Numbered from the stretch's first letter, positions 4,430 through 27,077 are shown. The stretch: DNA of 32,067 nt from a virus (IMGVR_UViG_3300001919_000084), one strand, 5' to 3'. Notes: generated by a model not told the origin, from the letters alone. Translations and numbers: made by a program.

Positions 4430-5197
4430 TCACCCCATAGATATCGAGGTTTCGGTAATAATACGTTTTGCGTCCAACTCCCATGCTGTGATCACGTCTG
4501 CAATCACACTTATCGGCGCTTGTGTGGCATAAATACGCTCTTCTCCAATTGGTGCTGAAACATCCGTAAAGCCGACTTCTTTGGCATCCTGTATCGAGCA
4601 AATCAGCGGGACCGGGACACGAACAAGGTGAGTGGTTGCTTCAAATTGTGTACCTGTCATCAGGCGAAGCCGTGCGCCCAGCGAATTACACATCAGACTC
4701 ATGGTCGCTTTATCAGTTGCCATTAACGTAACGTCATACGTCAGAATGGCCTGGGTGTATTCCAGTTCTGCTAAAGGCGTTCCGGTATCTGGTTCGCAAA
4801 AACTGGCTACTTTTTTGCGGTCAATCTGCTGATCATCGTTGATATAATTGATATCCATAGTGCGTGAGATATTGACCAGGGGGAGAGCATCCCGGTTAAT
4901 GTTCTGGTTTTCAGGTTTTCTCCCTTGCCCGGCATTTGCGCGACGAACTGCTTTAAGAAACTCGATCGCATTGTCGAAACGGGCCATATAGACACGCTCT
5001 GCTGGTGGACGATTCAGGAATGACGCAAAGCGTTTTTCTTCCGGCGCGGGGGCCACCAGTAAGATATCAGAAAAAATGTTGCTGATTAGCGTCGCAAACG
5101 CGTTATCCACGTTTTCAAAGCCCGTGGTCTGGAATTTTCCTGTGCGTAAGGTTTGCCATTCACCGGTTCGCGCCAGGAGGGTTTTATTTGAAGTCAT
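4430..5197 (-). CDS. hypothetical protein (255 aa)
   Basis: Long ORF whose ATG overlaps the upstream stop (ATGA); no motif recognised. Confidence 0.5.
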   Translation of the reverse strand: MTSNKTLLARTGEWQTLRTGKFQTTGFENVDNAFATLISNIFSDILLVAPAPEEKRFASFLNRPPAERVYMARFDNAIEFLKAVRRANAGQGRKPENQNINRDALPLVNISRTMDINYINDDQQIDRKKVASFCEPDTGTPLAELEYTQAILTYDVTLMATDKATMSLMCNSLGARLRLMTGTQFEATTHLVRVPVPLICSIQDAKEVGFTDVSAPIGEERIYATQAPISVIADVITAWELDAKRIITETSISMG

Positions 5198-5985
5198 TCG
5201 ATCACTCCGTTTTGAGTCGTATCAAAATTCCTGGCAGGTATGCAGTAGTAAAGCGAACCAACATGCTGTGTGCCGTAGCTAAAAATACGGTGCACGTACC
5301 ACCAGCGGCGGGCTACGCCGTTTACCATCTCTTCATTCCATTCAAGAATTGAGCCGACGGGGACGTTATTTGCTGCAATACGCAGAATCAGAACATCATC
5401 GGTTAAGCCATCCTGCTCACCGTCTGCGTCAATCGCATGGAAAGAGTCACGCCCGTCAGGGTTATCCAGCACATAAACGATTTCAGGTTCCTGGTAAGTC
5501 AGTTCGCGTTGGTTGTTATCCAGTTCAGTGAATGACTCTTCTCCTGTTTCGTCGCTGACTACCCCATATGTGCCAACATCTGGTCGATATAAGAGAGCCT
5601 GAAACGCGTCTGGGCTGGATTCAATAATCAGCATCCAGTCTGCGCGGATTTGGTCGTTAAAGGCTTTATGCCCGTTATAGCGTGCTTTTAGCTGTGGAGT
5701 TGGTTCTCTGCCAGCCAGGGAAGGAGGAAGTATGGCTATATCTGATTCGCCAGCATCCGGAGTAAGGCCACCGTTGCTATCAGCAAAATTATCATGGCTA
5801 TCAGCTTTGGCGGCGGGTTGCTCTTCCAGAATGCTGAATGAATCCGAACCGGTATTGCCATGTTCCGGCGCGCCTCCTGCATTCGCTTCAATCGGCGCTG
5901 GCGTTTCTCTCTGCGTGCTGTCATGTTCTGACTCCTTACTTGCCAGGTTTGCATCGTCAGCAAACCATTCGTCAAAACGGCCCAT
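5194..5985 (-). CDS. hypothetical protein with acidic low-complexity N-terminal half
   Basis: ORF 5194-5997 trimmed to ATG at 5985 (GAGG 6 nt upstream). N-terminal ~100 aa are D/E/S/G/P/A-rich; the C-terminal ~160 aa look globular. First gene of the leftward operon. Confidence 0.5.
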   Translation of the reverse strand: MGRFDEWFADDANLASKESEHDSTQRETPAPIEANAGGAPEHGNTGSDSFSILEEQPAAKADSHDNFADSNGGLTPDAGESDIAILPPSLAGREPTPQLKARYNGHKAFNDQIRADWMLIIESSPDAFQALLYRPDVGTYGVVSDETGEESFTELDNNQRELTYQEPEIVYVLDNPDGRDSFHAIDADGEQDGLTDDVLILRIAANNVPVGSILEWNEEMVNGVARRWWYVHRIFSYGTQHVGSLYYCIPARNFDTTQNGVIE

Positions 5986-6147: not shown

Positions 6148-6450
6148 ATGACCAAAAAAATTAACATAAAGGATTTCAGGGATGCGTGGCTTGATGATTT
6201 TTTTGAATTTTCAACACCACATAGAAAGATACCTCCTGATATTCATATGACATTGTCACGGAAGTTGGACATTATCAATGCCGCAACTACCTGTAAGGAT
6301 TTAAGATCACCACCAGGTAATCGGTATGAGGAACTGTCAGGGAAGCTAAATGGCTATTCATCAGTAAGGGTGAATAAGCAATATAGGTTAATTTTTAAGT
6401 GGGTTAACGGAAAGGCCGAGGACTTGTATCTCGACCCTCACAAATACTAA
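6148..6450 (+). CDS. higB: HigB-family toxin (RelE/ParE superfamily)
   Basis: 100 aa; KDLRSPPGNRYEELSGKLNGYSSVRVNKQYRLIFKWVNGKAEDLYLDPHKY matches the HigB killer-protein signature; GGAGG upstream; followed by a HigA-like gene. Confidence 0.8.
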   Translation: MTKKINIKDFRDAWLDDFFEFSTPHRKIPPDIHMTLSRKLDIINAATTCKDLRSPPGNRYEELSGKLNGYSSVRVNKQYRLIFKWVNGKAEDLYLDPHKY

Positions 6451-6520
6451 AACAGATACCCGGTTACGGACCGGGTTCTGACCAGAGTCCACTTAATACG
6501 TACGCTAGTAAGGGCAAAAA

Positions 6521-6859
6521 ATGAAACAGGCAACCAGAAAACCGACGACCGTAGGTGATATCCTGCTGTACGAATACCTGGAGCCGTTAGAGCTGAAGAT
6601 CAACGAGTTAGCAGAAATACTTCATGTTCATCGTAACACCGTAAGTGCTCTTGTTAATAATAATCGTAAGCTAACGATGGATATGGCATATCGCCTGGCA
6701 AAAGCATTCGATACTTCTGTAGATTTTTGGATTAATCTTCAGACCGCAGTAGATCTGTGGGAAGTCGAAAATGATATGCGCGTTCAGGAAGAGTTAAGTC
6801 GTATCAATACTGCTGAAAAATTTATTTCTCAGCGGAACCTGAATAAAAAAGCAGCCTGA
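6521..6859 (+). CDS. higA: HigA-family antitoxin (XRE-type HTH)
   Basis: 112 aa; VGDILLYEYLEPLELKINELAEILHVHRNTVSALVNNNRKLTMDMAYRLAKAFDTSVDFWINLQ is a typical HigA HTH; AAGGG upstream. Confidence 0.8.
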   Translation: MKQATRKPTTVGDILLYEYLEPLELKINELAEILHVHRNTVSALVNNNRKLTMDMAYRLAKAFDTSVDFWINLQTAVDLWEVENDMRVQEELSRINTAEKFISQRNLNKKAA

Positions 6860-13585: not shown

Positions 13586-13700
13586 ATTGGCAGCCTCCTT
13601 TGACTAAGTTAAGGAGCTACCGCGTGAGGTTCCAATCTCAATGGCGGTAGCACTGACTGGGTTGGAACTACCGGCGTCAAAGGGAACCGGCCTGCCTTTC
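13586..13700 (-). promoter_or_regulatory. structured 5' leader of the small-gene/antirepressor operon
   Basis: On the mRNA strand a CTCCTT segment lies 10 nt upstream of the AAGGAGG SD and can pair with it; further complementary pairs are gctaccgc/gcggtagc and ggttccaa/ttggaact. Confidence 0.3.
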
Positions 13701-13898
13701 GGCAGCCCAGCCAGCACTACCATTGATCTCTGAGCTAAACGCTACGTATGGCTGTGCGATGGCATGACACAAAAAAAGACGCTTTCGGCGTCTGTGTCGC
13801 CTTTGACATTATCCGGGGTTCCAATCCCGGCACCCGTTTTTCTAAGGTGCCGTAGAAATATACCCCACGATAATGCCAGGGCGCAACAGTCTGTATTT

Positions 13899-14066: not shown

Positions 14067-14397
14067 TTTGACACCCCCAGCGCGAGTAAAGAATGCAGAT
14101 TATCGCGTGAGTGGTGGACGACGAGTGATGGGGAAAGACTGTAGTTGTTCATAGTGTAGTGACTCCTTGCTTTCGGAGCCGCCATCGACTGTTCCACGGT
14201 CTGGTGGCGGCGCAATAAAGGCTGGAACACCGTGAGTCAACGGGGGCTTTTCAGCCACCTATATTGCACCGCCATAGGTATGGCGGCGGCAATAATACGA
14301 AAAACTAAATAGTTTGTCTCAAAAAGTTGACCGGTGTGCCAATCGGTAGTGAATGTACATCGGAGTGTTTTTCAATTCAACTTAAAATGTTAGAAAA

Positions 14398-14976
14398 CTA
14401 ATTTATCAATTCAATCGCCATCAGATACAACGTCATTTCATCGGCATTGTGCCGCATGAAATCTGCTTTTCCGCCTATTTTTCCATCAGCATGAACAGGG
14501 ACCAGCCAGGGATATTGGTCTCGGACCTCGGCTGGCGCTGCGTACTGGTGGTGCCATTTACACAAAGGGAGGACATATTTATGCGCGTTCTCTGCCGTTC
14601 TCCCGAAGATATGGTGCAGGGATACCACTGGGCTATGTTGCCCGTGAATATGGCAGGCAATGCAGGGGAGAGTACCGATAGCGGTCTGTATCCGGCGTTC
14701 ATCGGCTGTGAGTGATCTGCCCTTCAGGCCGCGTGACGTGCGTGTTTTTTTGGGCGGAGCGGATACAGATTTATCTTTTCTCCGCTGTTCATATTGTTTT
14801 GCTTTTTCAATTTTCTTTTGCCGATATTCAGGCGATGCGGCTTTTTCTCTCGCTCGCTGCTGCTGGCGTTGAGCTTGTTGAAGGCGCTTTGCCCTTTGTT
14901 CCTCTCGCCAGGCCGGGTCAGCCAATTTTTGCATGGCTTTTTGTCTCTGTTTCTCCCAATAACTCTGTTTCTGCAT
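14398..14976 (-). CDS. Ref-like HNH-type nuclease (recombination enhancement function-like)
   Basis: 192 aa; N-terminal ~85 aa K/R/Q/E-rich, C-terminal LPCIACHIHG...SLHHIFGR...LPLCKWHH Cys/His motif. Architecture and size fit P1 Ref as I recall it. Confidence 0.5.
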   Translation of the reverse strand: MQKQSYWEKQRQKAMQKLADPAWREEQRAKRLQQAQRQQQRAREKAASPEYRQKKIEKAKQYEQRRKDKSVSAPPKKTRTSRGLKGRSLTADERRIQTAIGTLPCIACHIHGQHSPVVSLHHIFGRTAENAHKYVLPLCKWHHQYAAPAEVRDQYPWLVPVHADGKIGGKADFMRHNADEMTLYLMAIELIN

Positions 14977-15024
14977 GATGGCAGTCTCTTACTTTTCAAC
15001 GATTTTTCTATGATTGATTAAAAT

Positions 15025-15054
15025 GGTTAGATATTCAAAATTGATTTTCTAACA
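15025..15054. promoter_or_regulatory. inverted repeat GTTAGA-N16-TCTAACA (operator-like site 2) with embedded promoter-like hexamers
   Basis: ggttagatattcaaaattgattttctaaca in the divergent region between the Ref-like gene and the rightward operon. TTGATT (15041-15046) and TAATAT (15063-15068) are spaced 16 bp. Confidence 0.4.
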
Positions 15055-15096
15055 CAAAACATTAATATCATCACTGATAAATGTTTGGAGGACATG

Positions 15097-15249
15097 ATGC
15101 TTATAGCTTTAAGTGCGATCCACCAGCCATCTGTGAATGAGATTGGCCTGTTCTATGTGTTTTTTTTCGGGGCGTTGGCGCTACTTGAATTAGGTATTGA
15201 GCTTTTTGCCGTGCTGATGTTTTTCGTCACGATGCTGGGGAAATTTTGA
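15097..15249 (+). CDS. small hydrophobic membrane peptide (50 aa)
   Basis: GGAGG at 15087-15091, ATG at 15097; MLIALSAIHQPSVNEIGLFYVFFFGALALLELGIELFAVLMFFVTMLGKF; its TGA overlaps the next ATG. Confidence 0.4.
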   Translation: MLIALSAIHQPSVNEIGLFYVFFFGALALLELGIELFAVLMFFVTMLGKF

Positions 15250-15872
15250 TGGTGAGATGTGTTTTGAAAATTTACATCGCGGGGCCGATGACTGGTTATC
15301 CCGACTACAACCGCACAGCGTTTTTTTCGAAAGCAAAAGAGCTGATGGAGGAAGGGCATATTGTTCTGAATCCGGCGCTGTTACCTGCTGGCCTCTGCCA
15401 GAGCGAATACATGGATATTTGTCTGGCAATGGTGCGTTCTGCTGATGCGATCTATCTGCTTAAGGGATGGGATGTGTCCGCAGGAGCACGTGCAGAACAC
15501 GCTCTGGCTGAAAAACTGGGGTTGACGGTAATTTATGAAGCACCATCTGACACAGATTGCAGAATGGCAGCGCATCTTTACCGTGAACTGGTCGATGCAT
15601 TACGTGATGTTGCTATTGAATGTCACGGCACGGATCAGCTTCGCGCCCGCTTAAGCAATACCCTTTCCAGTTACCTGTCTTTAGCTGAAGGATACAACCT
15701 CCGGCAGCGGAGAATGGTCAAATTAATCACGCGTTTATCTCAATCCCTGGCAAATGCCGAACCAACTAATCCGCTACCTAATGACGCAATGAATTATCTG
15801 AAGTCATGCGGCGTTGTTTCTGAAGATGCAGTTCGTTTTGTGGAGTTTATGTCTCAGAGGATGTCGGCGTGA
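15249..15872 (+). CDS. DUF4406 (nucleoside 2-deoxyribosyltransferase-like) protein with C-terminal extension
   Basis: KIYIAGPMTGYPDYNRTAFF...HIVLNPALLP...ADAIYLLKGWDVSAGARAEHALAEKLGLTV fits the DUF4406 pattern; C-terminal segment LYRELVDALRDVAIECHGTDQLRARL is shared with the 23425-24627 protein. Confidence 0.6.
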   Translation: MVRCVLKIYIAGPMTGYPDYNRTAFFSKAKELMEEGHIVLNPALLPAGLCQSEYMDICLAMVRSADAIYLLKGWDVSAGARAEHALAEKLGLTVIYEAPSDTDCRMAAHLYRELVDALRDVAIECHGTDQLRARLSNTLSSYLSLAEGYNLRQRRMVKLITRLSQSLANAEPTNPLPNDAMNYLKSCGVVSEDAVRFVEFMSQRMSA

Positions 15873-16186
15873 GCTGGCGGGGATGGGGAAGGGCAGAAAT
15901 CATGATACTCCGCCAGTGCGCCGGAACTATGACGGTCGAGAGTATTGGGAAGCTGATCGGTCGTACCGGTGATGCCGTCAGGACTAAAGCGCGGGAGTTG
16001 GGGATCAGCATGATTCTGAAAGGAGACTTTCATCCGTCAGCCAAATACCGGCAGAGCGATATAGAACTGGCACGGCAGCTTCATCAGTGTGGTGTTCCCC
16101 GCCGTGAGATCGCGGAAAAACTCGAAATGCCCCTGGGCATGATTAATCAGTACGTTTATTTCGAAAGGAGAGTGTATGAAGTCTGA
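15869..16186 (+). CDS. putative HTH DNA-binding protein
   Basis: 105 aa, GTG start overlapping the upstream stop (alternative ATG at 15902); TVESIGKLIGRTGDAVRTKARELGI and VPRREIAEKLEMPLG look like HTH segments. Confidence 0.45.
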   Translation: MSWRGWGRAEIMILRQCAGTMTVESIGKLIGRTGDAVRTKARELGISMILKGDFHPSAKYRQSDIELARQLHQCGVPRREIAEKLEMPLGMINQYVYFERRVYEV

Positions 16187-16685
16187 AGGTTTAACGCCCG
16201 CACAACTGGCAGAGCGTAACGCTGAGTATGTAACGGAAATTTCCCGACTTGAGAAAGAGCGCGCGGCGCTGGCTGCGGAGAATGCGAGACTGAAGGCGAT
16301 ATGTGAGGATCGCCGCACGTTCATTATGAATGGCGTGCAGCTTGGTTTTATCAAGGTGCCAACAGTGGAAATAGATCCAGCTCTTGAAACAATTCGTATC
16401 GCCCTATCACCACAAAAAACTACTCCTGCGACCGACACTTTCCTGGATGAAGTGAAGACTGAAGCACGCAAGGAGGGCGCTTACTTTGTGGCGAACAGAA
16501 TGCTGGCTGCCTGGGTAGCTGGTTTTATTGATGATACTGCGAAGAACGCCGCGGATATTGCCCGGATGATTCTTACCTCTACTGAGTTTATGGCTAATGC
16601 GCCGGAAGGCGATTTTGACCGCTCATTCTCTGATGGCGTTCTCGAAGATATCGCCGAACAGCTTCGTAAAGGAGTCATCCAGTGA
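16176..16685 (+). CDS. Ea22-like coiled-coil protein (paralog 1)
   Basis: AAAGGAG 5 nt upstream; [17 protein letters not shown] coiled coil; C-terminal domain TPATDTFLDEVKTEARKEG...EQLRKGVIQ is paralogous to 17670-18455. Confidence 0.55.
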   Translation: MKSEGLTPAQLAERNAEYVTEISRLEKERAALAAENARLKAICEDRRTFIMNGVQLGFIKVPTVEIDPALETIRIALSPQKTTPATDTFLDEVKTEARKEGAYFVANRMLAAWVAGFIDDTAKNAADIARMILTSTEFMANAPEGDFDRSFSDGVLEDIAEQLRKGVIQ

Positions 16686-17350
16686 GCGAGCTTTATTATC
16701 AGACGTTACGTGAACGTTTTTCACCGAAACCAGCGCCTAAATGCTCTGTTTGTGGCGAGGAAATGTCAATGCAGCGCATATCTGGATCACATGTTGTTTA
16801 TGCCTGTTCTGGCATGGAGGAAGACGGATGCTTCAAAACTGGACGAACTTATGCTGACGAGCATTACAAAAAATCGCGCATAACAGTAGTTGATGATAGC
16901 GATCCTGATGTGATTGAACTGCTGGACGAGAACGTGGAGATGGCTCTAACGCTTGAGAATCTGCGTGTTGAGCTGGAAGCCGCTAAAAAGTGTATTGCAG
17001 AGCTGGAAAGCAATTGCGGGGCGCTGGTGGCGGAATGCCAAAACAAAAAAGCAGCACTTGAGGAAATTCTTAGCCATCTCCCAATTAATCATCCAGATAT
17101 AGACATCGCATGTGTAGCGAACATAGCTCATAACAAATTAGGCGAGGTGAAAAGCACTACATCTGAAGCTTACCTTGTTGAAATACAGGCTCAGGGATTG
17201 GAGGCATTCGCTTTGACGATGCGCGATACCGGAGATGATCCATTTTTTGATTCCGTTGCTTCTGCTTGCGCGGATGCGGCTGACAGGTTCGCAGCCCTGC
17301 TTCGTAAAGGACAATCCTGCCTGCGCCCGAACTTTGAAGGGAAAAGATGA
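16682..17350 (+). CDS. coiled-coil protein with N-terminal CxxC zinc-ribbon-like motif
   Basis: GTG start overlapping the upstream stop (caGTGAgc); [24 protein letters not shown]; [30 protein letters not shown] coiled coil. Confidence 0.5.
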
Positions 17351-17673
17351 TGACCACATCGCATTCTGCAATTACCCAGGAAAAAGCCTTCCACATACTC
17401 GAACGATTAGAAACGCTCGCTACGGAGGAGAAGATATCCCCGGAGATGCTGGTCGAGTGCAGCCGTGTGATATTGCGTCGCAAGAACGACATCGCGCGGC
17501 TGACATCTGGCGCACCATCCGTATCAGCCAGTCCAACGCTTTATTGCAGCTTCTGTAACAAATCCCAGCACACCGTTAAAAAGTTAATTGCCGGGGACAA
17601 CGTTTTCATCTGCAACGAGTGCGTGAAAGATTGCAACAACATTATCCAGGAAGAGCAAAGGGAATCAGCATGA
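17347..17673 (+). CDS. small protein with ClpX-type zinc-binding domain
   Basis: 108 aa; C-terminal [36 protein letters not shown] matches the ClpX N-terminal C4 zinc-finger signature; ATGA overlap with the upstream stop. Confidence 0.65.
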
Positions 17674-18455
17674 AATTTTCCAAATTTTCTGAGTTGGTGA
17701 ATCGTATTTTGTCCAACAACCACAGCCATCGTCGCGATATGGATGTAACGATCGTTGTTCATTCGCCTGGTCGCATCGGTTCAACACCATCAGTTGAGGT
17801 TCAGTCAATTCAGGTGGGTTTTGATTGGGATGCCGGGCAAGTGATGATTTTTCCAGCACAGCCACTGACCACGCTAACACCAGAACAGATTACTGATATT
17901 ACTGATAGTGTGCGCAAAGGTCAGTCCTGGCACGCATATCAGGAATACAAGAAGCATAAAGAGCAGTTGGAAAAATTATCGATTGAACTTGATGCCGCAA
18001 AACAGCGCATTGCAGAGCTGGAGGGTAATTGCGCGGCGCTGGCGGCGGAGAATGCGGGAATAAAGTCTGCAATTCCAGAATCACGGGATATTGAGGATGA
18101 CAATGACAATATGGATGACGTATCTCTCGCGGAAGATTTCGGGTTCAATCATGCAATAGAACTGATGAGGAGACGGATTCCTGAAACTCCGGCCACCGAC
18201 GCTTTCCTGGCTGAAGTACGTGCGGAGGCACGCAACGAGGGGATTAACTACACCGCAAGCCGTCTTGCTGCTGCGTTCAATCACGGATTTATCAATAAGT
18301 CTTTGCGTGAAGTTTTCGACGTTACACGCATGATTTTGTCAGCGAAAGAAGAGTTGGCTAATGAACCGCATCCGCTTGATGGCCTGTCCGGTGAATATGC
18401 GGAGAAATCCCTTGAAGAATGGGCGGAACAGATTCGCAAAGGAAGCAGCCAGTGA
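17670..18455 (+). CDS. Ea22-like coiled-coil protein (paralog 2)
   Basis: ORF 17619-18455 trimmed to ATG at 17670 overlapping the upstream TGA; [23 protein letters not shown] coiled coil; C-terminal [19 protein letters not shown]...EQIRKGSSQ. Confidence 0.55.
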
Positions 18456-18772
18456 ATATCGACACCACGATAACGCTCGATACGGCCCTAAATACCGGTC
18501 TGGCACTTCTCGGTTGGCTTTACATCATGTCCCGTACATGGCGATGGCTGGGTTCCATTTTCCTGAAACAGTGGAAAAAACGGCGCAAACAGGAACTACG
18601 CCAGAAGGCATTAGAAGCGTTCNNNNNNNNNNNNNNNGAACTACGCCAGAAGGCATTAGAAGCGTTCTATGACGCATTTGAACTTGGCAGCATTGAACCA
18701 GGCACAACAGCGAGGATAGCGACAAAAGGCGACCTGATGATAGTGATGTTCAGACAGGAGAAAACAAAATGA
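18452..18772 (+). CDS. small membrane protein, reading frame interrupted by an assembly gap
   Basis: GTG start overlapping the upstream stop; hydrophobic LNTGLALLGWLYIM; contains N-run 18623-18637 flanked by an exact 30-bp duplication, so length and frame are unreliable. Confidence 0.35.
   Translation: MNIDTTITLDTALNTGLALLGWLYIMSRTWRWLGSIFLKQWKKRRKQELRQKALEAFXXXXXELRQKALEAFYDAFELGSIEPGTTARIATKGDLMIVMFRQEKTK
18623..18637. other. assembly gap (15 N)
   Basis: Run of n; the 30 bp before and after (gaactacgccagaaggcattagaagcgttc) are identical, suggesting an unresolved overlap join. Confidence 0.95.
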
Positions 18773-18993
18773 CAGAACAGACGATGACAAATCGCGAACT
18801 TGTTGATGCCGCGATTGAACTTGCTGGCGATTTTTATTCCATGATGGGTTACGAGCATCGACCTGGTTTTAAGTATTGGGAGTCACCGCATCCGCAAGAA
18901 CAACAGGTGTTTGAAATGGCTTGCCGTGCTTTTGAGTTTATTCGCGGTTCTGATGTGATGGATGCCGTTGCCGACTTGGAGGATGAAGAGTGA
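18769..18993 (+). CDS. hypothetical protein (74 aa)
   Basis: AGGAG 8 nt upstream of ATG at 18769; ATGA overlap with the upstream stop. Confidence 0.5.
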   Translation: MTEQTMTNRELVDAAIELAGDFYSMMGYEHRPGFKYWESPHPQEQQVFEMACRAFEFIRGSDVMDAVADLEDEE

Positions 18994-19301
18994 GCACAAT
19001 TAAAGAAATGCCGGTAGAACGTGATGAATATGGCTGCTGGACACATCCGGAGTATGAAAAGTTTTGCGCAGGCCGTGAATATATTTCCACTGAGGAATTT
19101 GACGCCTGGATGAAGGAAAATAATCTTCAGTGGACTATTCGCAGTATGGATGAAGATGATTTTGATCTGGACGCAGCTGGTCCCGATATTGCCGCCTGGG
19201 AACCGGAGCGACCAGAGGGTGAAGGCTGGTTTGTTGGCTCTATTCATGACACTGAAGATGGTCCAGTTTGTATCTGGCTGCGGGAGAAGGTTGCCGCATG
19301 A
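18990..19301 (+). CDS. hypothetical protein (103 aa)
   Basis: GTG start with GGAGG 7 nt upstream, overlapping the upstream stop; acidic protein. Confidence 0.45.
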
Positions 19302-19990
19302 TCCAGGCTATGCATGAAGTGAATTTATATAGCCGTATTGATGGTTCTGGCTACAGAAACATATGGGTTGTTGGTGATCTGCATGGTTGCTACACCAGAC
19401 TGATGTCCGAACTCCATCGTGTGGATTTTGACCCGGCGCAGGATTTACTGATATCGGTTGGCGACCTTATCGATCGCGGTACTGAAAATGTCGAATGTCT
19501 GGAACTATTGCAGATGCCCTGGTTCAGGGCAGTAATGGGGAACCATGAGCGGTTGATGCTTGATGCGTTAAGTCCTGATGGCAACGTGAATAACTGGCTA
19601 ATGAATGGCGGACAATGGTTCTTCATGCTGGACACTGATCAGGAAATATTAGCCAAGGCGCTGGTGGAGCTGGTAAAGCGTCTGCCATATATCATTGAGT
19701 TGAACACCGGGCATGAAACTATCGTTATAGCCCATGCCGACTATCCAGGTGGAGAGTACCAGTTCGGTAAGGATGTGTCGCTTTTTGATGTTGTCTGGTC
19801 GCGCAGTCGCGTCGGTGATTCGATAGATGGCATTGGTGGAGAAATCACAGGCGCAGATCGCTTTATCTTTGGGCACACACCGGTACGAAGACCAAAAGCA
19901 TACTGGAATCAGCACTACATAGACACGGGCGCGGTTTTTTGCGGAAATCTGACGCTAATGCAGGTGAAGGGAGGGCAGCTTAAAGTCTGA
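19298..19990 (+). CDS. serine/threonine protein phosphatase (PPP family)
   Basis: ORF 19268-19990 trimmed to ATG at 19298 (ATGA overlap); metallophosphatase motifs GDLHG, GDLIDRG, GNHE. Confidence 0.8.
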
Positions 19991-20015
19991 TCAAATCATT
20001 TACGCACTCATAATT

Positions 20016-20045
20016 TGTTAGAACATTGATTTTAGTTTTCTAACA
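20016..20045. promoter_or_regulatory. inverted repeat TGTTAGA-N16-TCTAACA (operator-like site 3)
   Basis: tgttagaacattgattttagttttctaaca; ends 43 bp before the ATG at 20088, the same offset as site 2 from the ATG at 15097. Confidence 0.4.
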
Positions 20046-20087
20046 TATTATTTTACCGCTCGGAACAAAACAGAGTCGGTATACATT

Positions 20088-21083
20088 ATGAGTGCAATAA
20101 TCACACCTCATTTCGTAAACGGAGCTGGTGTGGCTGTCTTTCCGGTAGACAAGCCCACCAGTAACTACATTGGCGCAGGTCGCCGTTTCATTATCTCCCC
20201 ACTTCCGCGTGAACAGGCTGAAAACACGCCAGATGGCGTAGTGGATCTGAATTATTCGCTGGTTGCCAACCAGTCTCTGAAACCGTTTTTTCAAAGCGAG
20301 CGCGTATTTAACGCGTTGGGCGGTGAAGATTCGCTTGTTCATTGGGTAAGTTCCAATATCCACGATTGCCAGGCGCACGATAAGCGCGATTGCAGCCACC
20401 AGCTAACCACTCATTTCTATAACGGCTCTGCCGTTCGCCTGTGCTGGAAGCATGATGCGGAATACATGATGAAGGGGTACAGCAAGTTGGACGACCAGTT
20501 ATCCCTGAATCGTGCCAACTGGGTTATGAACTGGGCTGCGAGCGAGTTAAAACTACCGCCAGAACGCGATCTGAGCATGGTTGAACTCACTTTTTGGGCC
20601 ATTCGCCGGAATCTGAAAGATGAGCTACCAGATGAAGCCGGTCGCATTGCATTTTGTCAGCCAAAAACTGAAATCCCTACCGGTACGCTGAAAGAATCAG
20701 ATATCACCTGGGAGCACAGTACCCGCGAGCTGGTGGACATAACCGCAGAGCAGATCGTCAACCTGTCTGTAGATGAGGATTCCGGCCTGCTTTATATGCG
20801 CCGACCAAAAGCGGTCCTCGGTAAAAGCCCGGCTTATCTCCGGTTTGTGGTTTCTCGTCCGTGCATCGGATGCGGTGGCAAAGTTAACCACCCGTTCATG
20901 TACCGCGCCCGCTCGTTAAACGAACACGACCGCTGGGCTGTTCCTCTTTGCGATGACTGCGCCAGAAGCGCAGAAAACGATGTCCGGGCATGGGAAAAAG
21001 CACATGGCATACGCCTTTACGTAGCCGCTAACCAGCTTTTTGACTTCGCCATCGAGCGCGGAGTGATCACTTTCAATAACTGA
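20088..21083 (+). CDS. hypothetical protein with C-terminal Cys-rich zinc-ribbon-like motif
   Basis: 331 aa; RPCIGCGGKVNHPFMYRARSLNEHDRWAVPLCDDCARS near the C-terminus. Confidence 0.55.
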   Translation: MSAIITPHFVNGAGVAVFPVDKPTSNYIGAGRRFIISPLPREQAENTPDGVVDLNYSLVANQSLKPFFQSERVFNALGGEDSLVHWVSSNIHDCQAHDKRDCSHQLTTHFYNGSAVRLCWKHDAEYMMKGYSKLDDQLSLNRANWVMNWAASELKLPPERDLSMVELTFWAIRRNLKDELPDEAGRIAFCQPKTEIPTGTLKESDITWEHSTRELVDITAEQIVNLSVDEDSGLLYMRRPKAVLGKSPAYLRFVVSRPCIGCGGKVNHPFMYRARSLNEHDRWAVPLCDDCARSAENDVRAWEKAHGIRLYVAANQLFDFAIERGVITFNN

Positions 21084-23428: not shown

Positions 23429-24627
23429 CCACTATTACCAAAGAGCGACTGCTGGCAATCAAGCAGTGGCGCGAAACATACGGACCTGGTAGCAACGTTG
23501 TACTGCCAGCAGAAGAAGCGGAAGAACTGGCACGGATTGCTCTGGCAGCGCTGGAAGCTGAACCTGTTCTGTATCAGTCCTGCACTCGCCCCACTTGGAA
23601 TAGCGGTGTTCCGTGGACGGAATGGAAAGAACGTAGTCGTGAGGGCTACGAAAACGATTTGCGCTTTACAGACACGCCTGACCATGCCGGTTGGATAAAC
23701 AAATGCCGAAAACTATATACCACTCCGCCAGTTCCGGTAATGCAGGCTGATGTCGCGCAAGCAATTGAAAACCTCAAGCAGAAGTTAGTGGAATGCAATC
23801 GCTATAACTACTGCGCAGATGCCGTTAAAGGTGTTGAGGATGCCAGCCGCGTCTTGGCACTCCAAAATCAAAATATGTCAGCGCCGATAACGCCGGAGGC
23901 TATTGAAAACGCAATTGAATACATCCGCAGTATCGCTTTTCACATCAATGAAGACGATTACCACGGCAAACATATTGCGTATTTCATGCGACAAGCATTG
24001 GCCTGGCTGGAAGGGCATTCATGCAGCAACGATAGACTGGGTAAAGCCGATAATCAACCAGTACGCGGCAACCAGGCTGCCGAATCCAATCGCGGTAATG
24101 AGTGGACCGGCAATCCTGATATTGATAACGCCATCATCATGCTCGATCGCATAGATACTCTGGAAAATTGCGATGATGACCGTATTGAGGCTGTTAAGGC
24201 CGTTTTGCGTAGACTGGCTGGCAACTATCCGGATATTCCGGATAGTTCGGTGCCAGCGCCAGGAAAGGGCGTCACCGGTGAACNNNNNNNNNNNNNNNNN
24301 NNNNNNNNNNNNNNNNNNNNNNTCCGAATTAAGCCGCATGTTTATCGCGAACTGGTTAACCGTCTCCACGATACAGCGATCAAGTGTGCTGGCACCCAGC
24401 AATTACGAGAAAGAATTAGCCGTGTTTTAGGCGACGTTATTACGCCAGATCATCATAAACAAGCCGAGAAAAGTGGCTTGGAAAGGTGTCACCTTGAGGC
24501 GGCATTAAACATTAAGCCGGGGCATACACTTGGCATTATTGATGCACTATTGGTTCATAAGATGGCCAGGGCTTTATTGCCGCTGGTGGCTGAAAAGCAT
24601 GAGGTGGACCATGCCAACGAAAGCTGA
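23425..24627 (+). CDS. hypothetical protein (about 400 aa), interrupted by an assembly gap
   Basis: ATGA overlap with the upstream stop; contains N-run 24284-24322; C-terminal segment VYRELVNRLHDTAIKCAGTQQLRERI resembles the C-terminus of the DUF4406 protein. Confidence 0.5.
   Translation: MTTITKERLLAIKQWRETYGPGSNVVLPAEEAEELARIALAALEAEPVLYQSCTRPTWNSGVPWTEWKERSREGYENDLRFTDTPDHAGWINKCRKLYTTPPVPVMQADVAQAIENLKQKLVECNRYNYCADAVKGVEDASRVLALQNQNMSAPITPEAIENAIEYIRSIAFHINEDDYHGKHIAYFMRQALAWLEGHSCSNDRLGKADNQPVRGNQAAESNRGNEWTGNPDIDNAIIMLDRIDTLENCDDDRIEAVKAVLRRLAGNYPDIPDSSVPAPGKGVTGEXXXXXXXXXXXXXXRIKPHVYRELVNRLHDTAIKCAGTQQLRERISRVLGDVITPDHHKQAEKSGLERCHLEAALNIKPGHTLGIIDALLVHKMARALLPLVAEKHEVDHANES
24284..24322. 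other. assembly gap (39 N)
   Basis: Run of n inside the reading frame of 23425-24627. Confidence 0.95.
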
Positions 24628-25420: not shown

Positions 25421-25810
25421 ATGGGCTTCCCTTCTCCTGCGGCGGATTATGTTGAAAGCCGAATTTCTCTTGATCAACAACTAATCAGGCATCCATCAGC
25501 AACCTACTTCATGCGGGCAGCTGATAGCCATCACCGTGAGGGAATATTGCAGGGTGCTTTGCTGGTGGTTGATTCTTCGCTTACTCCAGTTGATGGTTCG
25601 CTGCTTGTGTGCGCTATGGAGGGTGAATATCGCATAAAGAGATACAGGAAGTATCCGCGCCAGCACCTGGAGGATTTAAGCACCGGGAAGAAAGAGGCGT
25701 TACCAGTAGATGACGATGGATACACGGGCAGTAATGCTGTTTTTGGTGTGATCACCCACATTATCAATGACGCCAGGGGCGGTGAATTTGATGATAGTCC
25801 TGCTATATGA
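25421..25810 (+). CDS. humD: HumD (UmuD'-like SOS mutagenesis protein homolog)
   Basis: 129 aa beginning MGFPSPAADYVESRISLDQQLIRHPSATYF, which matches the UmuD GFPSPAADYVE region; begins at the position equivalent to processed UmuD'. Confidence 0.8.
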   Translation: MGFPSPAADYVESRISLDQQLIRHPSATYFMRAADSHHREGILQGALLVVDSSLTPVDGSLLVCAMEGEYRIKRYRKYPRQHLEDLSTGKKEALPVDDDGYTGSNAVFGVITHIINDARGGEFDDSPAI

Positions 25811-26475: not shown

Positions 26476-26697
26476 ATGCAATCCATTAACTTCCGTACCG
26501 CGCGCGGCAACCTTTCTGAAGTGCTCAACAATGTTGAAGCCGGGGAAGAGGTTGAAATCACCCGCAGAGGCCGTGAGCCAGCAGTAATTGTTAGCAAGGC
26601 TACTTTTGAAGCCTACAAAAAAGCGGCGCTGGATGCCGAATTTGCATCCCTGTTTGACACCCTGGACTCCACCAACAAGGAACTGGTTAACCGATAA
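26476..26697 (+). CDS. phd: Phd antitoxin (prevents host death)
   Basis: [73 protein letters not shown] matches P1 Phd as I recall it; GAGG upstream; the tool ORF starts at an upstream GTG; stop overlaps the doc ATG (TAATG). Confidence 0.9.
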
Positions 26698-27077
26698 TGA
26701 GGCATATATCACCGGAAGAACTTATTGCGCTTCATGATGCGAATATAAGCCGCTACGGTGGCCTGCCGGGAATGTCAGATCCGGGTAGGGCAGAGGCCAT
26801 TATCGGGAGAGTTCAGGCCAGAGTTGCCTACGAAGAGATCAGCGACCTTTTCGAAGTCTCCGCCACCTACCTGGTGGCTACAGCGAGAGGGCATATATTC
26901 AATGATGCCAATAAGCGTACCGCGCTAAACAGTGCGCTGCTATTTCTACGCCGTAACGGGGTGCAGGTATTTGATTCACCTGAACTGGCAGACCTTACTG
27001 TAGGCGCTGCGACTGGCGAGATATCTGTATCTTCTGTCGCCGACACGTTACGTAGATTGTATGGTTCTGCGGAGTAG
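26697..27077 (+). CDS. doc: Doc toxin (death on curing; Fic-fold kinase)
   Basis: 126 aa; [39 protein letters not shown]...[23 protein letters not shown] matches P1 Doc as I recall it. Confidence 0.9.

Follow-up and report, generated by a model that had tools for sequence, protein, structure and literature searches.

ClpXP controls sigma-S, SOS mutagenesis and cell-division proteins, several antitoxins, among them P1 Phd, and the replication or transposition proteins of lambda and Mu. Two other host proteases, Lon (T4 PinA and T7 Gp4.5) and FtsH (lambda CIII), have known phage inhibitors, and the anti-adaptors IraD, IraM and IraP bind RssB. A literature search found no paper on a natural phage inhibitor of ClpX-dependent recognition. 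The N-domain of ClpX is required for SspB, RssB, MuA and FtsZ and is dispensable for the ssrA tag (PMC5415555). Degradation of lambda-O requires this zinc-binding domain (ZBD), a hydrophobic patch around F16/I46 is common to lambda-O, SspB, RssB and trigger factor, and in the course of the ClpX cycle ZBD dimers relocate to the AAA+ ring (PMC7804408). The ZBD dimerises by itself (PMC7226468; PMC5415555) and, when the purified E. coli domain was supplied in trans at 5-20 µM, it inhibited RssB-mediated sigma-S degradation by 0.6 µM ClpXP (PMC7226468).

The window analysed in this study is the full 32,067-nt stretch of the virus IMGVR_UViG_3300001919_000084, with coordinates counted from its first letter. 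It carries a small gene whose product joins an N-terminal helical hairpin to a ClpX-type ZBD. The features of the gene and its immediate neighbours are as follows.

17347..17673, + strand: gene for the hairpin and ClpX-type ZBD protein, 108 aa (107 aa from the second ATG at 17350)
17377..17505, + strand: N-terminal helical hairpin, residues 11-53 (AF2 model, family alignment, phmmer and dN/dS)
17506..17541, + strand: Ser/Ala/Pro-rich linker, residues 54-65, modelled with low confidence (pLDDT dip, no secondary structure, variable in the family)
17542..17667, + strand: ClpX-type C4 ZBD (Pfam match at residues 66-102; C-terminal helix to residue 107)
17545-47, 17554-56, 17611-13 and 17620-22, + strand: codons of the ZBD cysteines C67, C70, C89 and C92
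16682..17350, + strand: upstream Ead/Ea22-like gene, 222 aa, whose stop codon runs into the start of the ZBD gene (context only)
17670..18455, + strand: downstream Ead/Ea22-like gene, 261 aa, opening with an ATG that overlaps the stop of the ZBD gene (context only)

With the ClpX ZBD the phage domain shares its predicted fold, the cysteine pattern CxxC-x18-CxxC, 72% of a 39-residue core and the F16/I46 pocket. It differs in having no AAA+ ring, in lying at the C-terminus rather than at the N-terminus, behind a hairpin that is specific to the family, and in evolving faster than cellular ClpX ZBDs. Like the isolated recombinant ZBD (PMC7226468), which is the direct functional precedent for a decoy, it is a free ZBD without an ATPase; however, the recombinant domain was a laboratory construct of host sequence used at large molar excess, whereas the phage protein is the product of a natural gene and has an extra domain and a diverged surface. 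The likeness to the anti-adaptors and to PinA, Gp4.5 and CIII, all of them small and able to alter which substrates a host AAA+ protease selects, lies in the proposed outcome, the stabilisation of selected substrates. Those proteins have unrelated folds and act on the adaptor or the protease, whereas the phage protein would copy the docking domain of the protease. No homology to IraD, IraM, IraP, PinA, Gp4.5 or CIII was detected, the Pfam scan at E<=0.1 returning only zf-C4_ClpX, so that any tie to the protease inhibitors would be one of functional analogy.

The gene, its array and the two domains of its product

The window protein is an ordinary member of an annotated family. It is identical to WP_000213525.1, 'ClpX C4-type zinc finger protein', which is also the name given to the family by PGAP, and the second ATG (17350, 107 aa) is the start used by PGAP and in most homologs. 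The protein matches PHROG 6797 (E=1.2e-56, residues 2-107 on profile positions 1-106 of 107), for which the annotation is function unknown. The domain content is thus already recorded (RefSeq, PHROGs), and the sequence fact is not new; the function would be. In GenBank/RefSeq phage records the family is often mislabelled 'carboxylate--amine ligase', a name backed by no domain search; mislabelled members include the following.

6351-6671 of the examined D6 locus: D6 orf93
4992-5324 of the examined P88 locus: P88 gp19

The sequence-only reading had described the gene as coupled within an Ea22-like array, and this description held. Both flanking genes match PF13935 in Pfam (E=5.6e-12 and 2.4e-8), and stop and start codons overlap on both sides of the ZBD gene (ATGATGA at 17347-17353 on the upstream side and ATGA at 17670-17673 on the downstream side). 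The Ead_Ea22 model (PF13935) gave no match to the ZBD protein itself. A Shine-Dalgarno-like GAAGGGA stands 5-8 nt 5' of the start. In a promoter scan, a single sigma-70-like site was found in the interval from 14.3 to 20.2 kb, against 7.2 +/- 2.7 expected, and this depletion over 14300-20200 agrees with one long transcription unit for the accessory array. Taken together, the overlapping starts and stops, the Shine-Dalgarno-like site and the single promoter match indicate that the ZBD gene is a cistron of a long, translationally coupled array, which lies at about 15.2-25.2 kb. The consensus of the P1 C1 operator had zero matches when the whole window was scanned.

Many genes of such arrays end in ...RKG..Q or ...IKGE (in the window at 16660-16685, 17330-17350 and 18430-18455, and in neighbours at loci L003, L004 and L011). 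The codons of these tails form the Shine-Dalgarno sequence (AAAGGAG or AAAGGAA) of the next overlapping gene, so that the constraints of the ribosome-binding site dictate the C-terminal peptides, and the idea that the neighbours carry XB-like docking tails was rejected on these grounds. Two runs of N interrupt the window, at 18623-18637 (15 nt) and 24284-24322 (39 nt). A copy of one 30-nt sequence, GAACTACGCCAGAAGGCATTAGAAGCGTTC, stands at either edge of the former, which for this reason resembles a scaffold join left unmerged and gives rise to artificial ORFs in which peptides are duplicated.

The assignment of the ZBD is solid. The C-terminal 40 residues had been likened to the C4 zinc finger of ClpX, with an HMM search for the zinc-finger family as the suggested check, and that search confirmed the likeness. 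Pfam PF06689 (zf-C4_ClpX) was matched by residues 66-102 over model positions 2-39 of 39 with E=1e-17 and 64.2 bits, the gathering score being 27 bits. The ZBD of E. coli ClpX (1OVX, 2DS5-2DS8) provided the top matches of a phmmer search against the PDB (E=1e-15 to 4e-15), followed by ClpX from other species. The alignment of the core to E. coli ClpX is ungapped, with 28 of the 39 positions identical (72%), and places C67, C70, C89 and C92 at the ClpX spacing of x2/x18/x2; the four zinc-ligand cysteines are invariant in 20 family members. In an AF2 model built from 20 family sequences (mean pLDDT 78.5; 81-90 in the ZBD), the predicted ZBD superposes at 0.6 Å on 2DS5, 2DS6 and 2DS8, the last being a ZBD-XB complex, and at 1.6 Å on 1OVX. 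The pocket residues F16 and I46 (literature numbering) correspond to F69, which is invariant across the family, and to I99, which is I, V or L. The 11 core positions (of 39) that differ from ClpX are mostly polar surface positions, and several lie along one face of the C-terminal helix (D42, L43, D46 and R49 in Met1 numbering).

The same reading had taken the protein to be free-standing, which is borne out by its length of 108 aa and the lack of an AAA+ module. The ClpX equivalog models TIGR00382 and NF003745, which have cut-offs of 359 and 370.75 bits, gave 47.5 and 43.6 bits, and the match was confined to model positions 5-50. For the same reasons (108 aa, scores far below the equivalog cut-offs, no AAA+ module), the possibility that the window protein is a ClpX unfoldase was ruled out.

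The AF2 model places the two helices of the hairpin at residues 11-27 and 32-53. Beyond them, pLDDT falls to 61 in the block of residues 51-60, where the model has no secondary structure, and the linker is variable in the family alignment. In the same alignment the hairpin is strongly conserved, with many near-invariant positions, charged ones included. When residues 1-63 were used as the phmmer query in an exhaustive search of 1.84 billion representative proteins, nine hits were returned, all of them members of the hairpin and ZBD family or fragments of these, except for one repetitive, probably spurious sequence of 190 aa. The hairpin is accordingly a domain proper to this family, found among the 1.84 billion representatives only in fusion with the ZBD. 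Foldseek searches of the PDB and BFVD gave matches to the ZBD part and none to the hairpin. The conservation, the predicted hairpin and the exclusive fusion to the ZBD rule out that the N-terminal 55 residues are a mere leader. The sequence-only reading had passed over this domain, for which every proposed mechanism has to account. The motif LRRK in the second helix of the hairpin was considered as an SspB-like XB motif and set aside as unsupported, because it sits in a confidently predicted helix whereas XB peptides bind in an extended conformation.

Host elements, distribution and selection

The region around the ZBD gene is about 95% identical to phage D6, which makes the window part of a D6-like (P1-like) phage-plasmid. 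The window is collinear with the 92-kb E. coli plasmid pWP8-S17-ESBL-05_2 and identical to it at every sampled 30-mer up to 18 kb; beyond 20 kb the matches of the sampled points have shifted offsets, which indicates indels between the two. The plasmid carries genes for terminase, pacase, baseplate, Ref, Icd/Ant, Phd/Doc and a Cre-like recombinase. The assignment of the window to a lambdoid phage was rejected on the strength of the matches to D6 and to pWP8-S17-ESBL-05_2. Rfam identified a C4 antisense RNA of P1 type at 13640-13727 (- strand, 77 bits) and isrK at 13772-13850 (- strand, 63 bits); both stand upstream of icd/ant-like genes, as an immunity region of the P1 immI type. The window opens, at positions 1-220, within the 3' part of a gene for glutamine--tRNA ligase (glnS) that belongs to the phage-plasmid and is 100% identical to pWP8-S17-ESBL-05_2 (plasmid locus 1-874); an aminoacyl-tRNA synthetase is unusual for a P1-like element.

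At megablast sensitivity the ZBD gene was found in 111 of 5426 complete E. coli genomes, on plasmids in 104 of them. At blastn sensitivity it was found in about 195 of the 5426, and roughly half of the copies were chromosomal. The D6-type ref marker is present in 110 E. coli genomes and is plasmid-borne in all of them; judged from these two separate counts, the ZBD gene looks near-universal in the D6-like lineage. Three temperate-element backbones carry the family: D6-like phage-plasmids, phage-plasmids of about 107 kb (PhiR41_1 and CMS-2020a) and P88-like prophages of the P2 family. The chromosomal copies in the P88-like prophages lie directly 3' of gpA-parM-stbB and 5' of the portal gene, in a variable region of P2 type. 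Ea22-like genes adjoin the ZBD gene in most contexts, namely in D6-like, PhiR41_1-like and many P88-like elements, and are missing in two of those examined, P88 (locus L003) and locus L011. An all-against-all BLASTP comparison of the flanking genes from six contexts revealed no universally conserved neighbour and no pointer to a target.

Three family members of 119-120 aa (P0002, P0008 and P0015) have an N-terminal extension starting MKSEGLTPAQLAERNAEL. Over the first 17 or so residues it nearly coincides with the beginning of the 169-aa Ea22-related ORF at 16176..16685 of the window (compared over 16176-16230). Recombination has evidently joined the head of an array gene to the ZBD gene, an instance of mosaic shuffling within the arrays.

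No DNA-level match between the ZBD gene and host clpX was found in any E. coli genome (blastn, word size 11). Comparison of the phage ZBD cores with E. coli clpX by the Nei-Gojobori method gave a pS of 0.84-1.0, that is, saturation, and amino-acid identity to ClpX stands at 59-79% in spite of this saturation. A recent capture from host clpX was rejected on both counts. Among phage copies, dN/dS was about 0.2-0.5 for the ZBD, except that the closest pairs approach 1. For the hairpin, with the closest pair set aside, it was 0.11-0.48. Both domains are under purifying selection. Saturated synonymous sites together with dN/dS below 1 point to an old, maintained gene and not to a recent fragment of clpX. 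The D6-type and P88-type branches share only 41% identity in the hairpin and about two-thirds in the ZBD core (counted from the aligned cores), and the ZBD cores of these two branches are 72-79% identical to ClpX. Cellular proteobacterial ZBDs match the E. coli ClpX ZBD at 35-38 of 39 positions and stand-alone phage ZBDs at 20-31 of 39. The free ZBDs have thus lost part of the constraint acting on the N-domain of ClpX itself; given this greater divergence, their partner specificity may have shifted relative to ClpX.

A possible decoy for ClpX ligands and its alternatives

The reading best supported by these data, plausible and to our minds evenly poised between right and wrong, is that the window protein competes with ClpX for adaptors and substrates. 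The protein consists of a hairpin, a flexible linker and a ZBD that mirrors the docking domain at the N-terminus of host ClpX. The free ZBD would be dimeric, as is that of ClpX, with the hairpin possibly building higher oligomers. It would bind the short hydrophobic or basic docking peptides of adaptors (SspB, RssB, UmuD) and also those of N-domain-dependent substrates (lambda-O-like, MuA-like, FtsZ). The expected outcome would be a selective lowering of N-domain-dependent degradation and remodelling by ClpXP, with recognition at the pore, for example of ssrA tags, unaffected. The inhibition obtained with a free ZBD and the conserved F16/I46 pocket make such a decoy plausible, and it is in line with the domain identity, the zinc ligands, the pocket, the predicted fold, the selection, the presence in three temperate lineages, the polycistronic coupling and the recurrence of ZBD-only proteins in Pseudomonas, Caulobacter and metagenomic phages.

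Several points tell against a simple decoy. Inhibition by the bare ZBD takes roughly a 10-30-fold excess (PMC7226468), and a simple decoy would thus be weak unless its avidity or expression were high. The divergence of the stand-alone ZBDs, which extends to the face of the C-terminal helix, means that ligand specificity may differ; a plain decoy has no role for a strongly conserved hairpin; and no conserved neighbour gene in the six contexts points to a target. Since a bare ZBD is a weak competitor, we infer that the hairpin could raise avidity by oligomerisation, in imitation of the trimer-of-dimers platform of ClpX, or could add target specificity. The sole hint at such a role comes by analogy, from the helical or coiled-coil segments that recur before ZBDs in unrelated phages.

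In a second reading, the protein would target ClpX itself, its ZBD forming heterodimers with the ClpX N-domain or docking on the AAA+ ring. This reading draws on the close resemblance between its ZBD and that of the host, where nearly every hydrophobic position is retained, and it would give an obvious task to the hairpin. The result would be a poisoned trimer-of-dimers or, if the hairpin tethered cargo to ClpXP, an adaptor made by the phage. ZBDs dimerise by themselves (PMC7226468; PMC5415555), their dimers shift onto the AAA+ ring in the ClpX cycle (PMC7804408), and a second domain with many invariant charged residues, fused to nothing other than the ZBD, would fit a cargo-binding or ring-binding module. 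No cargo candidate was found, however, and the position of ClpX L43 (Met1 numbering) is occupied by Asp in the window protein and by D, A, V or L in the family, which would speak against an interface strictly conserved to match ClpX, provided that the residue is interfacial. We regard action on ClpX itself as unlikely. The partial divergence of the ZBD surface from ClpX, together with the place of the gene in a mosaic accessory array beside Ea22-like coiled-coil genes, would suit a role outside proteolysis, in which the ZBD is a zinc-stabilised module for dimerisation or peptide binding that joins the hairpin in binding a protein of the phage or the host. The protein might, for example, tune lysis-lysogeny or plasmid maintenance, which has been proposed for other array genes of the exo-xis/Ea22 type.

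The domain is also reported in other architectures, such as cyanobacterial sigma factors (PMC11119718). The 59-79% identity to ClpX and the retained F16/I46 pocket nevertheless exceed what maintenance of the fold would need, the Ea22-like neighbour is not obligatory (P88 locus L003 and locus L011), and the RKG tails shared by the neighbours are imposed by Shine-Dalgarno sequences and are not a docking motif. A ClpXP-independent role is in our estimation improbable, though the diverged surface leaves it some weight. That the ORF spans only the first domain of ClpX could suggest a decaying, functionless fragment of a captured clpX 5' end. This explanation has a very small probability and is effectively refuted: the ORF is intact in about 195 E. 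coli genomes, its zinc ligands are invariant across the family, dN/dS is below 1 in both domains (closest pairs excepted), there is no nucleotide similarity to host clpX, and the ZBD is fused to a conserved extra domain in a gene translationally coupled to both neighbours.

Competition for ClpX ligands, the preferred reading, would have candidate beneficiaries on the same replicon, listed below.

26476-27077: Phd/Doc module (Phd at 26476-26697, 73 aa)
25421-25810: UmuD'-like S24 peptidase

The 73-aa Phd of the window is presumably the same as P1 Phd. Phd is a ClpXP substrate (Lehnherr & Yarmolinsky 1995, as cited in PMC4963847). Neither the link to Phd nor that to the peptidase is specific. 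A specific coupling to Phd/Doc was rejected: 1233 E. coli genomes contain phd-doc and about 195 the ZBD gene, so that the former is about six times more widespread; the setting in P88-like elements is different; and the phage records with a tblastn match, out of 50,697 searched, did not include P1. A RelE/ParE-HigA pair is located at 6148-6859 of the same replicon.

Mu-like phages require ClpX, and the position of the gene in the P2-type variable region could speak for a role in exclusion, for example of such phages, although this is suggestive only. PADLOC gave no support, since neither the ZBD protein nor any of five proteins encoded near it matched a defence family of PADLOC-DB v2 at E<=0.01.

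Were these proteins decoys, they would be the first natural case of a protease countered by a copy of its own docking domain, would provide selective tools to block adaptor-dependent but not tag-dependent ClpXP degradation, and would account for a class of small proteins found repeatedly among phages of several bacterial groups. If ClpXP were untouched, the gene would be one more annotated accessory gene without an assigned function.

Stand-alone zinc-binding domains in other phages

Stand-alone ZBDs were surveyed by tblastn against the 50,697 phage records and by a scan of IMG/VR. Small proteins with the ZBD as their only recognised domain were found in Pseudomonas Detrevirus, in Caulobacter phage Cr30 and in about 24 further short ORFs on IMG/VR contigs, with lengths of about 60-220 aa by naive ORF calls. 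The survey also returned 11 full-length ClpX genes. PHROG 5259 is another family of stand-alone phage ZBDs, and two further examples are located as follows.

2504-2701 of the examined locus: PHROG 12435 protein of Pseudomonas Detrevirus, 65 aa, annotated 'protease'
about 1507-1725 of the examined locus: ZBD ORF of Caulobacter phage Cr30

A literature search found no paper that characterises the hairpin and ZBD family or any stand-alone phage ZBD protein.

Like the window protein, these proteins are small, have the ZBD as their only known domain and, where annotated, lie in early or accessory regions. They differ in their hosts and phage types and, with the exception of IMG/VR ORF L084, in having extensions that are unrelated to that of the window protein. 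In several of them the ZBD follows an N-terminal segment that is helical or coiled-coil, again unrelated to the window hairpin.

A wider proposition, which we hold to be somewhat less probable than not, is that temperate phages and phage-plasmids of many hosts have repeatedly made the ClpX docking domain into a free, oligomerised 'universal anti-adaptor'. The ZBD with its hairpin or coiled coil would form a multivalent mimic of the N-domain that soaks up adaptors and N-domain-dependent substrates. It would thereby stabilise proteins encoded by the element, such as replication initiators, antitoxins of the Phd type and UmuD'-like HumD. The copies in the P2 hotspot could instead exclude rivals that need the ClpX N-domain, such as Mu-like phages. 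If true, this would define a new general class of phage ClpXP modulators acting by domain mimicry.

Two details of the survey concern individual records. The annotated 41-aa CDS of Cr30 probably starts too late, and L084 is a distant member of the window's own family, with 28% identity.
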